From Candidatus Sericytochromatia bacterium (GTDB taxonomy: Bacteria > Cyanobacteriota > Sericytochromatia > S15B-MN24 > UBA4093): DNA of 54,593 nt. Where the stretch lies: NCBI GenBank assembly GCA_036676495.1, contig JAKFCT010000036.1, positions 1 to 54,593 of the forward strand. The letters are read 5' to 3'. Every line of letters begins with the position of its first letter. The first letter of the stretch is position 1. Under the pieces are notes generated by a model, which saw nothing but the letters and a program-made list of their open reading frames with translations, had not been told where the DNA came from and did no database searches. This document shows, piece by piece, positions 26,430 through 54,356 of the stretch. Position numbers and translations under genes: made by a program.

Positions 26430-29033
26430 TTAGAGCAGGCCCAGGGCGCGGGCGCGTGCGACGGCTTGGGTGCGGTTCGTGGCGCCGAGTTTGCCGAAGA
26501 GGTTGGTGCCGTGGCGTTTGACGGTGCTGAGTTCGATGACGAGCTGCTGGGCGATCGCCTGGTTGGTGAGGCCTTCGGCGATCAGCGCCAGGACCTCGCG
26601 CTCGCGTTCGCTGAGCGGATCGAGAAGGCTTTCGGGAGCGAGGGCTTCGCTTTGTGGGCCGATGAGCGTCTCGAGGAAGCGCGTTGCCGCGTCGTCGAGG
26701 GTCGTCGCGAGCGTGCGCAGCAGCGGCTGGAGGGAGGTGCCTTCGTCGAGAAAGGCCTGGCGGAGGTTTTCCGGCTCGGCGAGCACCACGGCGCGCGAGA
26801 GAAGGGCCGGGGCTTCTTCGGGGAGCATGCTCGCCCGGAGCACCATCGCCTGAAGCGCCAGCGGGAGGCGGCCCGCCTCCTGGGCATGGCGCTCGACTTC
26901 TTCGAGTCTGGCGAGGCCGCGTTCGCGCTCGCCGAGGGCCAGGAGGGCCTTGGCGGCCAGCAGGTTCCAGTCTTGCAGGGGCCAGTGGCGGGGCGTGCCG
27001 GCCTCGGGAGGTGGCGCCATGGCCACCAGGCGCTCCAGGGCGGGCCCGGAGTCGTCGAGGCAAAGGGCGCGCAGCGCGTTGAGGTAGATGCCGACGTTGG
27101 GGAGGGCTTGTCCCACCTGATGGGCCTCCTGCCACATGCGCTCGGCCTTCTCGCGCTCGTCGTGCAAGGCGTAGAGCCTGGCGAGCTGGGTGCATGCGTT
27201 GAGGTGAGGTTCGAGCAGGCCTTCGCCGCAGGCGCGGCCTTCGTGGAAGCAGCGGAGCGCCTCGTCATCGCGGCCTTGCTTGAGATGAAGGTGGGCGAGT
27301 CCCACCCATGCGTAGCTGGTGAGGGTGTTGGCCCGTCCGCCGTGGGCTTCCGCGAGCCGCAGGGCGGCTTCGAAGAGCGGCAAGGCCTCGCCGAGCTTCC
27401 CGAACTCTTGAAGGCAAGTGGCCTTCAGGCTCATGGCCAGGATGGCGTCGTGGGCGTCGGCTTCCGCGAGCACCAAATCGAAGGTGCGGAGGGCGTCCTG
27501 GGGGCGATCGCCATGCTGGTAGGCCGTTGCGAGGTTCAGGGCGACGCCGATGCGCCACATCGGCTCGTTCGGGGGGAGGGCGGCGAGCGCCGTTTCCGAG
27601 AGCCGCGTGGTGGTCGCAAGGTCTCCCCTCGCGCGGGCGGTGAAGGCTTGTAGGGCGACGAACTGGGCGGCGTAGGCGTCTCGCTTGCGCTCGTCTTCGA
27701 GGGGACGCGCGAGGGCTTGCTCGACACGACGAAACAGGGACGTCAGTTCGGCGTGATTCCCGCTCGGGAAGCGCACCCATGCCATGAGCAGGAGCAAGTC
27801 GGGGCGTTGATCCAGCCGGAAAGCCGGCAAGGCCGATAGCCAGCCCAGGAGGGTGGCGATTTCACCTCGGCCGAGCGTGGGGGCGGCGGCGGCGATCAGG
27901 TCGGCTGCGCGGGCGTCGTGTTGGCCCTCGAGGGCATGGTGGATGGCCTCGGAGTAGTGGCCTTGCCGCTCGAACCAGCTTGAGGCCTTCTCATGCAGGG
28001 AGCTCACGGAGGCGGGAGCTTGCCGCTCCAGCAGGTGCCGCAGCATGTCGGCGAAGAGGTGGTGGTAGCGGTACCAGCGCCGCTCGCCGTCAAGGGGCAC
28101 CAGGAAGAGGTTGGCCTGTTCGAGTTCTTCGAGAATCTGCTGGCTGCCGTGACTGTCGAGGAGGGCGTCGCAAAGCGGCCCCGAGAGGCGTTCGAGGATA
28201 CTGGTCTTCAGCAGGAAGTGCTGGACATGCGGTGGATGGGCGTGCAGGACCTCTTCGACCAGGTAGTCCACGATGTAGCGGTTCGTGCCGGCGAAGGCCG
28301 AAACGAAGGCCTCGCGATCCGGCGCGTGCTGAAGCGACAGTGCGGCGAGCTGCAAACCCGTCACCCAGCCCTCGGTGGCCTGAGTGAGCGATGAGAGGGC
28401 GTTCGCCGAGAGCCCCAAGGCCATCCGCTCGTTGAGATAGGCTTGGGCCTCCTCGGCTTCGAAGCGCAAATCCGCTGCTCTCAGTTCGAGCATCTGCCCT
28501 TGAGCCCGCAGCCGTGCCAACATGAAGGGAGGGTCCGAGCGGGTTGCCAGCACGACGTGCATGCCCTCGGGCAAGCGATCGATGAAGAGCGCCATCGCGT
28601 CGTGAATGGGGGGCGCCGTGATCACGTGGTAATCGTCGAGGACCAGCATGACGGGCGTGGGGCTCTCGGAGAGGCGGTTGATGAGCGCCGCGATCAGGGA
28701 CTTGTAAGACGGGGCGGGAGAATTCAAGATCTCCTCGGCCGCCATGACGAAGTCTCCCAGGGGCTTCGAGAGCGCCCGCAGCACATACATCCAGAAGCGG
28801 GTGGGATCGTTGTCGTCCCCATCAAGCGAAACCCACGCGGTTTCGGCATTTGCCGAGGAAGCCCAGGTGCTCACGAGGGTGGTTTTGCCGAAGCCCGGAG
28901 GGGCCGAGACCAGGGTGAGCTTGCGGGTCGGCCAGGATGCCAGCCGTTCGGCAAGCTGGGGCCGTGCCACCGTGCGCGGTTGCGGCCGGGGCATGAAGAG
29001 CTTCGTGCTAAGCAGGGGGGAAGCGAGGGGCAT
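26430..29033 (-). CDS. MalT-like (STAND/LAL) LuxR-family transcriptional regulator
   Basis: TKL..P, APPGFGKTT, LVLDDYH, TEGW, YRYHHLFAD, TPR-like sensor and C-terminal LSEREREVL HTH; alternative start at 29066. Confidence 0.93.
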   Translation of the reverse strand: MPLASPLLSTKLFMPRPQPRTVARPQLAERLASWPTRKLTLVSAPPGFGKTTLVSTWASSANAETAWVSLDGDDNDPTRFWMYVLRALSKPLGDFVMAAEEILNSPAPSYKSLIAALINRLSESPTPVMLVLDDYHVITAPPIHDAMALFIDRLPEGMHVVLATRSDPPFMLARLRAQGQMLELRAADLRFEAEEAQAYLNERMALGLSANALSSLTQATEGWVTGLQLAALSLQHAPDREAFVSAFAGTNRYIVDYLVEEVLHAHPPHVQHFLLKTSILERLSGPLCDALLDSHGSQQILEELEQANLFLVPLDGERRWYRYHHLFADMLRHLLERQAPASVSSLHEKASSWFERQGHYSEAIHHALEGQHDARAADLIAAAAPTLGRGEIATLLGWLSALPAFRLDQRPDLLLLMAWVRFPSGNHAELTSLFRRVEQALARPLEDERKRDAYAAQFVALQAFTARARGDLATTTRLSETALAALPPNEPMWRIGVALNLATAYQHGDRPQDALRTFDLVLAEADAHDAILAMSLKATCLQEFGKLGEALPLFEAALRLAEAHGGRANTLTSYAWVGLAHLHLKQGRDDEALRCFHEGRACGEGLLEPHLNACTQLARLYALHDEREKAERMWQEAHQVGQALPNVGIYLNALRALCLDDSGPALERLVAMAPPPEAGTPRHWPLQDWNLLAAKALLALGERERGLARLEEVERHAQEAGRLPLALQAMVLRASMLPEEAPALLSRAVVLAEPENLRQAFLDEGTSLQPLLRTLATTLDDAATRFLETLIGPQSEALAPESLLDPLSEREREVLALIAEGLTNQAIAQQLVIELSTVKRHGTNLFGKLGATNRTQAVARARALGLL

Positions 29034-29148
29034 GGCTCTGCGGTGAAAAGGGCGTGCGTTGGGCATTGTAGCGCTTTCCGCCCGGCTCCGGCAACGTGGG
29101 CCTCCTCGGAGGGCGTAAAATGGTCCCGTTCACCCTCAGGAGGATCGC

Positions 29149-29550
29149 ATGCTCATCACGCTCACCCTTCCCACTCACGCCCGCGAGCAACTGGTCGACA
29201 TCACCGACCAGGTTCTCGGCGCCGTGCGGCGCTCCGGCACCCGGGACGGCATCGCCGTCGTCTTCAGCACGCATACCACCGCCGGGATCACGATCAATGA
29301 GAACGCGGATCCCGACGTTCCCCGCGACATGCTGCACTGGCTGAAGACCCGCATCCCCCAGAACGGCGAGTTTCGCCACGGGGAAGGCAATGCCGACGCC
29401 CATCTCAAGACCTGCCTCTTCGGGATCTCCCAGACGGTCATCATCGAGGAGGGCGCGCTCGCCCTGGGCACATGGCAAGGCATCTTCCTGGCGGAGTTCG
29501 ACGGTCCCCGCACCCGGCGCGTCCTGGTGAAGATCATCCCGACGACCTAG
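29149..29550 (+). CDS. yjbQ: UPF0047 YjbQ-family protein
   Basis: HTTAGITINENADPDV, EGNADAHLK and LGTWQGIFLAEFDGPR. Confidence 0.93.
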   Translation: MLITLTLPTHAREQLVDITDQVLGAVRRSGTRDGIAVVFSTHTTAGITINENADPDVPRDMLHWLKTRIPQNGEFRHGEGNADAHLKTCLFGISQTVIIEEGALALGTWQGIFLAEFDGPRTRRVLVKIIPTT

Positions 29551-29557
29551 CTCCTGT

Positions 29558-29583
29558 GGGGCTTTCGAATGCCCGAAAGCCCC
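29558..29583 (+). terminator. Hairpin after yjbQ
   Basis: ggggctttcg...cgaaagcccc. Confidence 0.6.
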
Positions 29584-29589
29584 GTGGCC

Positions 29590-29618
29590 TTGACCGCTGC
29601 GCCCGCTTGAGGTAGCGT
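29590..29618 (+). promoter_or_regulatory. Sigma70-like promoter of sugE/gdx
   Basis: TTGACC-17 nt-TAGCGT. Confidence 0.65.
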
Positions 29619-29623
29619 TTTGG

Positions 29624-29721
29624 TGTGCGCCACTGGGGAAGCCGATGGCGGCGAGTAATCGCCGTAGGCCCCTCCAGGGGCCTTTTTGTCTTTTTATAGG
29701 TATCGGTTAGGAGCAGCGGCC
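29624..29721 (+). ncRNA. Candidate riboswitch/attenuator leader
   Basis: Terminator 29666-29683 plus T-tract lies before the RBS; a competing helix pairs 29633-29643 with 29667-29677 around a GTAA-tetraloop hairpin. Confidence 0.55.
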
Positions 29722-30042
29722 ATGGCATGGTTCTTTCTTTTCCTGGCGGGACTCAGCGAGGTGGGTTGGGCACTTGGATTGAAGTACACCGAGGGCTTCA
29801 CGCGCCTCGGGCCCAGCGTGGCGACGGTCGCGCTGATGATCGTGAGCTTCGCGCTGCTGGGACAGGCCCTGCGCGTCTTGCCGATCGGCACCGCTTACGC
29901 GATCTGGACCGGCATCGGGGCCATCGGGACCGCCGTGGCCGGCATGGTCCTCTTCGGAGAGCCCCGCGATGCCCTTCGCCTCGCCTGCCTTGGCTTGATC
30001 GTCGCGGGAATCGTCGGCTTGAAGCTGGTGACGCCCCAGTAG
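29722..30042 (+). CDS. sugE: SMR-family exporter SugE/Gdx (guanidinium exporter subtype)
   Basis: [40 protein letters not shown] and GIVGLKL; AGGAG RBS. Confidence 0.93.
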
Positions 30043-30179
30043 GCGCTCAGCAAGACTCGTTTGCCCGGTCGAGGGGTGGGGTTCACGCGTCACAGCCTTG
30101 CGGCTCCTGGCATCGTAGGATCGTTCTGCCGTGTTGACCCCTGGCATGAGGTTTTTTTATGGAAAGGGATGGCTTGCCG

Positions 30180-30512
30180 ATGGATGAGGAGGTCCTGGAG
30201 GTTCTTCGCTGCCTGGGAACTTACCAGATTCTCGAACCCCATCATCCGGCGCGTTCGGGCAAGGAGCCCGTCCGTCACATCGCCTTCGAGGCCAACGTGC
30301 ACTACCGCCGCGTCAGGCGCTTTGCCGGCGAGGCGCTGTGCTCCGCTCGCTCCATCTCCCGCTCGGGAGGCCGCAAGGTCAACGAGGAGCCGACTTGCCG
30401 CGCCTGCCTCGACGTGGCCCGCCGCTTGACCGAGGTCCCTCCGACCTCTGCCCATCTCCCCTCCGAACACCAGATGAGCCTCTTCGACCTCCTGGCTCCG
30501 GAGATCGCCTAG
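30180..30512 (+). CDS. Hypothetical protein with Cys/His cluster and C-terminal QMSLF motif
   Basis: GC3-biased ORF with AAAGGGA RBS; H...C...CRAC; alternative start at 30159. Confidence 0.6.
   Translation: MDEEVLEVLRCLGTYQILEPHHPARSGKEPVRHIAFEANVHYRRVRRFAGEALCSARSISRSGGRKVNEEPTCRACLDVARRLTEVPPTSAHLPSEHQMSLFDLLAPEIA

Positions 30513-54283: not shown

Positions 54284-54356
<73 letters not shown>

Follow-up and report, generated by a model that had tools for sequence, protein, structure and literature searches.

A conserved leader RNA with a predicted terminator upstream of gdx/sugE in a Sericytochromatia lineage: a candidate transcription attenuator

At positions 29722–30042 on the forward strand of contig JAKFCT010000036.1 of Candidatus Sericytochromatia bacterium (assembly GCA_036676495.1), a 54,593-nt stretch referred to here as the window (G000), lies a sugE/gdx gene encoding a 106-amino-acid protein that belongs to the SMR family (small multidrug resistance). 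The product matched Pfam PF00893 with an E value of 1.3e-29 and scored 134.2 bits against the SugE equivalog model NF008512 of NCBIfam (cut-off 126), which assigns it to the SugE/Gdx subtype. Given this score and the guanidine riboswitches that precede homologous loci, the gene very likely encodes a guanidine exporter. The gene is preceded by a promoter and a leader of ~65 nt, and the same arrangement was found upstream of sugE in five sequences: the window, two further genomes of its family (G002 and G003) and two metagenome contigs (L067 and L068). The leader is likely an attenuator. That it is a lineage-specific cis-acting RNA which attenuates gdx/sugE transcription by the mechanism proposed below is a reading to which we give about even weight. 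The elements of the locus are listed below; the rod and its parts were derived from the RNAalifold consensus of the five leaders.

29590..29595 (+), -35 hexamer TTGACC, identical in all five sequences that reach so far (G000, G002, G003, L068 and a remnant in the genome G001)
29613..29618 (+), -10 hexamer TAGCGT, TAGCCT in relatives, with GGTAGC conserved
29629..29681 (+), long rod hairpin of ~53 nt, the consensus structure
29629-31 with 29679-81 (+), rod base, with an A29632/G29678 mismatch
29633-38 with 29672-77 (+), helix P1b
between P1b and P1a (+), internal loop, AA opposite CC
29641-43 with 29667-69 (+), helix P1a
29644-48 against 29665-66 (+), internal loop, GAUG(G) opposite (U)A
29649-54 with 29659-64 (+), helix P2
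29655-58 (+), GNRA apical loop, GUAA in the window
29649..29664 (+), P2 hairpin CGGCGA-GUAA-UCGCCG, as read from the sequence
29644..29666 (+), near-invariant apical module (GAUGG, P2, GNRA loop, UA), a candidate sensor, from alignment A3
29629..29649 (+), alternative 5' hairpin H1 (GCCA with UGGC, UGG with CCG), part of the minimum free energy (MFE) fold of the window and G002
29666..29683 (+), short terminator hairpin AGGCCCC-UCCA-GGGGCCU, an alternative to the upper rod, with seven pairs in the terminator scan, six of them G-C
29683..29695 (+), U-run TTTTTGTCTTTTT (also written UUUUUGUCUUUUU)
29645..29710 (+), upstream open reading frame (ORF) of 21 codons whose AUG falls within the conserved GAUGG; it passes the U-run without a stop in all five sequences, with varying end and frame
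29701..29708 (+), segment complementary to 29640-47, beside the ribosome-binding site (RBS), not conserved beyond G000 and G002
29709..29713 (+), Shine-Dalgarno sequence AGGAG, 8 nt ahead of the sugE ATG (29722)
29722..30042 (+), sugE/gdx gene, 106-amino-acid SMR protein (Pfam PF00893, NCBIfam NF008512)

Promoter and terminator had both been proposed in an original prediction made from the window, and both, like every other sequence feature listed in it, were found at the positions given there. The two hexamers are conserved in relatives, and the sequence of the 17-nt spacer that separates them diverges. A consensus promoter scan did not call this promoter, since its -10 hexamer fits the consensus at only three of six positions; promoter scanning found no other promoter-like site between the terminator and sugE. 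Transcription would begin at about 29624–29627, about 4–6 nt ahead of the rod. The terminator scan called the hairpin and U-run at 29666–29695, ahead of the RBS and the SMR gene. A G+C-rich hairpin running directly into a U-run, the hallmark of an intrinsic terminator, is predicted in the window and three homologues, and a U-rich run follows the hairpin in all five sequences. Considered by itself, the window has features that exceed chance only weakly: a 1.7-kb region contained one terminator-like site against 1.2 expected in shuffles, and the fold z-score was -2.0 for 29615–29730 and -2.6 for 29629–29695. The case beyond chance comes from conservation among relatives rather than from the window itself.

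When 61 related genomes were searched at the DNA level, the leader turned up in two members of the window's genus and in one genome from a second genus in the family. A covariance model of the leader (R1), run over 47 genomes of the class, recovered the same genomes, with strong scores (83–98 bits) only in G000, G002 and G003; weaker matches (E <= 0.1) were such that 25 of the 47 genomes had some match, with no SMR gene at the weak loci. The sugE gene lies directly 3' of the leader in G002 (93% protein identity) and G003 (80%), and a degenerate pattern scan of a metagenome collection returned three loci, two of which, L067 and L068, carry the leader before sugE. The third, L066, was dismissed as a chance match lacking an SMR gene. 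The leader thus stands directly upstream of sugE in 5/5 instances, from about four lineages. The gene upstream of the leader is exbD-like in G003, versus yjbQ in the window (a YjbQ/UPF0047 protein gene at 29149–29550), which indicates that the leader travels with sugE. In G001, a genome of the same genus, sugE is absent and only the promoter and a broken 5' half of the leader remain. Conserved among the homologues are the -35 and -10 hexamers and a core at 29641–29672. Sequence and length both vary in the promoter spacer, in the first transcribed bases and downstream of the terminator, where the distance to the start codon ranges from 17 to 63 nt.

Wider searches added little. Run over 87 loci, among them 80 sugE loci of the genome collection (79 besides that of G002, mostly from other phyla), R1 found the motif only in L069 (the G002 locus), L067 and L068. 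A second model, R2, was applied to 151 genomes sampled from the phylum and gained a single further match, in G055 (26 bits). This match (L152 1501–1565, minus strand) is weak, falls in an unrelated rod-like hairpin in which GCGATCGC abounds and has no SMR gene in its vicinity; it was rejected as a homologue. We take GCGATCGC to be the cyanobacterial HIP1 palindrome; as a separate observation, GCGATCGC or GCGATCGT occurs in P2 of four of the five leaders, and the window has GTAATCGC there. When contigs from four soil metagenome DNA runs were compared with 29300–30300, only variants resembling G002 or G003 were seen, with no new lineage; one example combines 29676 A>G with 29682 C>T. The genome searches were filtered, only the top candidates of a first look being scored, so the absence of further homologues is soft.

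The RNAalifold consensus of the five leaders is a single rod of 20 pairs, three of which show two-sided changes. At the inner 15 pairs, 72 of 72 alignment cells hold standard pairs, compared with 28–57% when the partner strand is slid, and the fold z-scores of the five leaders were -2.6, -2.9, -4.6, -4.4 and -3.2. Compensatory changes lie in P1b, where U-A becomes C-G and G-C becomes A-U in G003, and where L067 and L068 have U-G in place of U-A. The apical 23 nt hardly vary: changes across the five sequences are limited to G29644 to A in G003, exchange of the GUAA and GCGA loops, and one P2 pair that passes from G-C to G-U. Such a module is not needed by a plain terminator. The exchanges among G-C, G-U and A-U pairs and a GNRA loop that is either GUAA or GCGA fit an RNA and not a DNA palindrome; a reading of the element as a DNA operator was ruled out, the G-U pairs and GNRA loop being kept on the plus strand only. 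The terminator scan called a short terminator-like hairpin in all four of the sequences scanned. This hairpin has six pairs in one homologue and five pairs with a 7-nt loop in L067 and L068, and its loop sequence varies (UCCA, UCA, UUCG or CCCCGGU).

Three folds were compared in the five leaders by their minimum or evaluated free energies (kcal/mol).

G000 (window): long rod -31.2; H1 + P2 + short terminator -32.5; originally proposed antiterminator alone -25.8
G002: long rod -27.9; H1 + P2 + short terminator -31.8; originally proposed antiterminator alone -22.5
G003: long rod -36.2 (MFE); H1 + P2 + short terminator about -24
L067: long rod -37.1 (MFE); H1 + P2 + short terminator -23.9
L068: long rod -33.5 (MFE); H1 + P2 + short terminator about -24

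The rod is thus the MFE fold in three of the five (G003, L067 and L068), and in L067 and L068 its base is a perfect 10-bp helix. It ends 1 nt ahead of the U-run. In all five leaders the strand preceding the U-run is paired at equilibrium with p >= 0.89, as part of the short terminator or of the rod base, and H1, predicted in the window and G002, does not prevent the short terminator from forming. Both alternative folds being terminator-like, any ON state must be kinetic or held by a ligand.

The leader matched no known RNA family. A scan of the whole window at Rfam gathering scores (a copy of 4227 families, in which the presence of a class IV model is unconfirmed) yielded nothing except a tRNA at 54284–54356, and a permissive scan (E <= 10) of 29540–29760 gave nine weak matches, the best being Xoo2 at E 0.51, all far under their gathering scores; these are noise. 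The original prediction had seen no known guanidine class I–III, and the covariance models agreed. Guanidine-I (ykkC-yxkD, RF00442, a model of ~107 positions) had no match in the window at the gathering score or in 29540–29760 at E <= 10, and neither Guanidine-II (mini-ykkC, RF01068) nor Guanidine-III (ykkC-III, RF01763) gave a model match in the window. The trimer ACG occurs nowhere in 29620–29721, so the ACGR loops of class II and the ACGA element of class III are both absent, the loops of the leader being GUAA and UCCA. The loop-loop pairing of class IV (mepA/GGAM-1), a class to which the original prediction had noted a loose likeness, was likewise not found, the leader loops varying among the five homologues and not being complementary.

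Guanidine nevertheless emerges as a candidate signal from the surroundings of orthologous genes. Rfam Guanidine-III lies directly upstream at six of 20 sugE-homologue loci of the class (proteins 54–57% identical); the original prediction had stated that sugE/gdx genes are usually under guanidine riboswitches. Genome-wide it was found in seven of 47 genomes of the class, all belonging to the sister family f6 (7 of 13 f6 genomes), and in none of the 10 genomes of the window's own family. Guanidine-I (under strict filters) and Guanidine-II were each found in 0/47 genomes of the class; in other phyla, Guanidine-II was present at five of the 20 nearest sugE loci scanned. A probable exporter gene, a lineage without the usual guanidine sensors and guanidine-III at the orthologues of the sister family together make guanidine the obvious candidate. 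In most of the f6 loci L042–L047 and L051, Guanidine-III stands 20–30 nt before the sugE start codon; in L043 it lies about 110 nt upstream, with extra sequence between, and a sub-threshold copy (33.9 bits) was noted in G037. Within the window's family, two loci of genus g4 (L039 and L040) have a sugE gene 58% identical to that of the window, with a TTG start and a different leader that has no Rfam match: a TTGACC-type promoter and a G+C-rich hairpin that immediately precedes the Shine-Dalgarno sequence and lacks a U-run. This could be a separate translational control element.

We propose the following mechanism for the leader. The conserved sigma-70-like promoter (29590–29618) would start a transcript shortly ahead of the rod hairpin (29629–29681), and since the rod base abuts the U-run (29683–29695), most transcripts should stop before gdx. 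The near-invariant upper rod, consisting of P1a, the GAUGG/UA internal loop, P2 and the GNRA loop, would serve as the sensor. If a signal reached the nascent RNA before the final pairs of the rod had formed, the polymerase would read on into gdx, as in the terminator-embedded aptamer of the hydroxymethylpyrimidine pyrophosphate (HMP-PP) riboswitch, and the most plausible signal would be guanidine or a close guanidino compound. The parts of this proposal differ in strength. Observed are the conservation, a structure with some covariation, the association with gdx and the lack of a match among known RNA families; the start and termination of transcription, conditional read-through and the nature of the signal are inferred. 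That the leader is a real structured cis-element with a terminator is probable, and whether it responds to a signal of any kind is evenly balanced. Direct sensing of a small molecule by the leader is a tentative suggestion, and direct binding of guanidine is doubtful. The most specific form of the proposal is a fifth guanidine riboswitch class with an aptamer of ~50 nt inside its own terminator, confined to a soil lineage of non-photosynthetic cyanobacterial relatives, where it would replace the guanidine-III of the sister family at orthologous gdx genes; we consider this unlikely.

Several observations weigh against signal-dependent attenuation or against guanidine as the signal. There are only five sequences, from about four lineages, and the core identity of L067 and L068 is partly a matter of ascertainment because the search pattern fixed much of the core. 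The two-sided changes amount to two or three pairs and all come from one sequence (G003), and the observed covariation score was reached by 79 of 500 column shuffles, so that covariation support is qualitative and not statistically convincing. H1, the fold that would compete with the rod, has no covariation support, since its outer pairs are invariant and its inner helix is broken in G003 by changes that preserve rod pairing (alignment A3). The balance between rod and short terminator is not the same in every lineage, and no antiterminated state is evident among the equilibrium folds of the five leaders. Genomes with the leader carry a single copy, and it precedes one type of gene only, so no second gene class points to a ligand. 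The sugE-linked motifs GGAM-2 to -6, finally, showed no guanidine binding when first tested (PMC7736828). Because the examples are only five and closely related, and several precedents are negative, the leader is a moderate rather than a strong candidate.

Four other explanations were weighed against the attenuator with an embedded sensor. The original prediction was a new guanidine riboswitch class, in which a ligand-stabilized antiterminator (29633-43 with 29667-77) acts against the short terminator (29666-83). The pairing itself was confirmed at nine of 11 positions, enclosing CGGCGA-GTAA-TCGCCG; the two folds are mutually exclusive, the covarying part of the structure is the proposed helix, the short hairpin was called in every sequence scanned, and orthologues are under guanidine-III control. 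What did not hold is the antitermination: the helix is the rod (P1b, P1a and P2) without its base, and it extends by 3–4 more pairs (29629-31 with 29679-81) up to the U-run, so the terminator region is not freed, the U-run is not left unpaired, and the mechanism needs revision. Taken alone, the helix is weaker than the MFE fold by 6.7 kcal/mol in the window and 9.3 kcal/mol in G002; in L067 and L068 the short terminator has only five pairs and a 7-nt loop, whereas the rod base is perfect; and GGAM-2 to -6 are negative precedents here as well (PMC7736828). We regard this model as quite unlikely. A second pairing from the same prediction, 29640-47 with 29701-08 beside the RBS, does form at eight positions, two of them G-U, and is not conserved in relatives: shuffled sequences did as well in 17 of 500 cases for the window and two of 500 for G002, and in 338, 309 and 183 of 500 for the other three. 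Rather unlikely, and yet the more serious competitor, is an element that is not regulated at all: a constitutive leaky terminator or stabilizing 5' hairpin that does no more than keep basal gdx expression low, or an independent small RNA of ~65–70 nt, transcribed from the conserved promoter, with gdx expressed by leakage. Every homologue forms a terminator-like helix before the U-run at equilibrium, no covarying competitor structure came to light, the transcript, like many small RNAs, would contain little besides one hairpin and a U-tail, and the motif is single-copy and narrowly distributed. Plain terminators, however, do not have invariant loops, and here the apical 23 nt are near-invariant while the lower stem changes; moreover, the leader stays before sugE despite a different upstream gene and decays when sugE is lost, and no other promoter-like site lies between terminator and gene.

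The invariant tip might instead be read by a trans-acting factor, for example an RNA-binding antiterminator protein of the BglG/RAT (ribonucleic antiterminator) or PyrR type. RAT elements overlap the left arm of a terminator, as the apical module overlaps that of the short terminator, and invariant stems such as P2 and P1a without covariation are more typical of a protein-recognized hairpin. No candidate regulator gene is kept beside the locus, the neighbors in G000 and G003 being different, and the product of the LuxR/MalT-like gene nearby (26430–29066) has, by its sequence, a domain of DNA-binding type; recognition by such a factor is improbable. In pyrBI-type attenuators an upstream ORF passes through the terminator hairpin and U-run, and the ORF of the leader also spans both, so a ribosome translating from the AUG at 29645 could suppress termination, perhaps sensing arginyl-tRNA at three consecutive Arg codons. 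The AUG lies within the conserved GAUGG behind a purine-rich stretch (GGGGAA, GAGGG), the frame is open through the U-run in 5/5 sequences, and the first nine residues read MAAS-D/N-RRRP in all five. The peptide identity, however, follows from nucleotide conservation, and neither the length nor the frame of the ORF is conserved: the ORF has 21 amino acids in the window, is in frame with sugE in two sequences and is out of frame and overlapping in two. Changes inside the ORF are matched by compensating ones outside it (29634 and 29636), a pattern that favors RNA pairing over coding, and 17 stop-free codons are not unusual in G+C-rich DNA. Translation-coupled attenuation is therefore very improbable, and the ORF is probably incidental. 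Signal-dependent attenuation through the apical module remains the reading we prefer.

In its architecture the leader resembles most closely the HMP-PP (thiS motif) riboswitch, which is an extended terminator hairpin whose tip is conserved to an unusual degree and which has an alternative 5' stem; the full-length RNA shows the terminator only, the aptamer being confined to the nascent transcript (Atilho et al. 2019, PMC6478431). In both, an extended hairpin running into a U-run is the dominant fold, its tip is more conserved than is usual in terminators, and a compact element stands directly before the regulated gene; an alternative 5' stem, predicted here as H1, could compete with the base of the terminator, and an ON switch would be expected. 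The two differ in that there is no similarity by sequence or model and that the gene class is another one; in addition, the alternative fold of the leader has no covariation support, and in three of the five homologues a second, short terminator can still form.

Guanidine-III controls the orthologous sugE in the sister family and, like the leader, is small (about 40–50 nt); by eye, CGCCGUA can be read in both, with the 3' strand of the outer helix coming next, and the rough chance of such a 7-mer match is ~1/10. The leader differs from it in having no ACGA, pseudoknot or model match, and in using a terminator as its platform instead of the Shine-Dalgarno region. Guanidine-IV is a terminator-based ON switch often found before sugE, whose ligand-bound structure includes the terminator hairpin, but it depends on two conserved, complementary kissing loops, whereas the loops of the leader vary and are not complementary (PMC7736828 and PMC12186494). 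Sequences upstream of sugE have been searched systematically before, with six motifs as the outcome, of which GGAM-1 (class IV) alone bound guanidine (Lenkeit et al. 2020, PMC7736828). GGAM-2 to -6 resemble the leader as lineage-restricted conserved structures upstream of sugE, GGAM-6 with terminators, and GGAM-4 and GGAM-6 are known from only eight examples each (PMC7736828, Table 1); they differ in coming from other phyla, namely Actinobacteria, Proteobacteria and Firmicutes (same source). Four core strings of the leader were not found in the supplementary alignments of PMC7736828, where gap characters could hide a match. The 2025 review counts four guanidine riboswitch classes (PMC12186494), and no fifth class appears in the passages of it and of the other guanidine riboswitch literature that were consulted. 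A literature search on riboswitches in Sericytochromatia returned nothing relevant.

The idea that guanidine is a widespread metabolite draws its main support from the four unrelated riboswitch classes that sense it. If a fifth class proved real, it would provide a new way for a small RNA to fold around a very simple ligand and would document turnover of riboswitches at one orthologous gene within a single bacterial class; an aptamer lying inside its own terminator would be the second example of that compact design. Should the leader not bind guanidine, it would join the unexplained sugE-linked motifs GGAM-2 to -6 and point to some other control of guanidine export.

Some features around the locus stand apart from these questions. 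In the window, a perfect 10-bp hairpin (GGGGCTTTCG ... CGAAAGCCCC) lies at 29548–29584, directly 3' of the yjbQ stop codon; it has no U-run, is not kept in G002, and may mark the end of the upstream transcript. Two genes upstream of sugE and on the opposite strand, 26430–29066 (-) encodes an 878-amino-acid ORF in whose translation a long MalT-like N-terminal part precedes a C-terminal helix-turn-helix of LuxR type, in a neighborhood that is not preserved in G003. Downstream of sugE, a 117-amino-acid ORF at 30159–30512 (+) has no Pfam match and falls within the otherwise unannotated gap of 590 bp between sugE and the next gene (30634). The block of the window that runs from sugE to a UDP-glucose dehydrogenase-like gene is missing from G001. 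At the remnant itself (L004 1553–1590), the 5' arm of the leader is followed by its own exact reverse complement, giving a perfect 18-bp palindrome with a 2-nt center, and then by CGTAGGC and unrelated DNA, an arrangement that looks like the scar of a template switch or a deletion.

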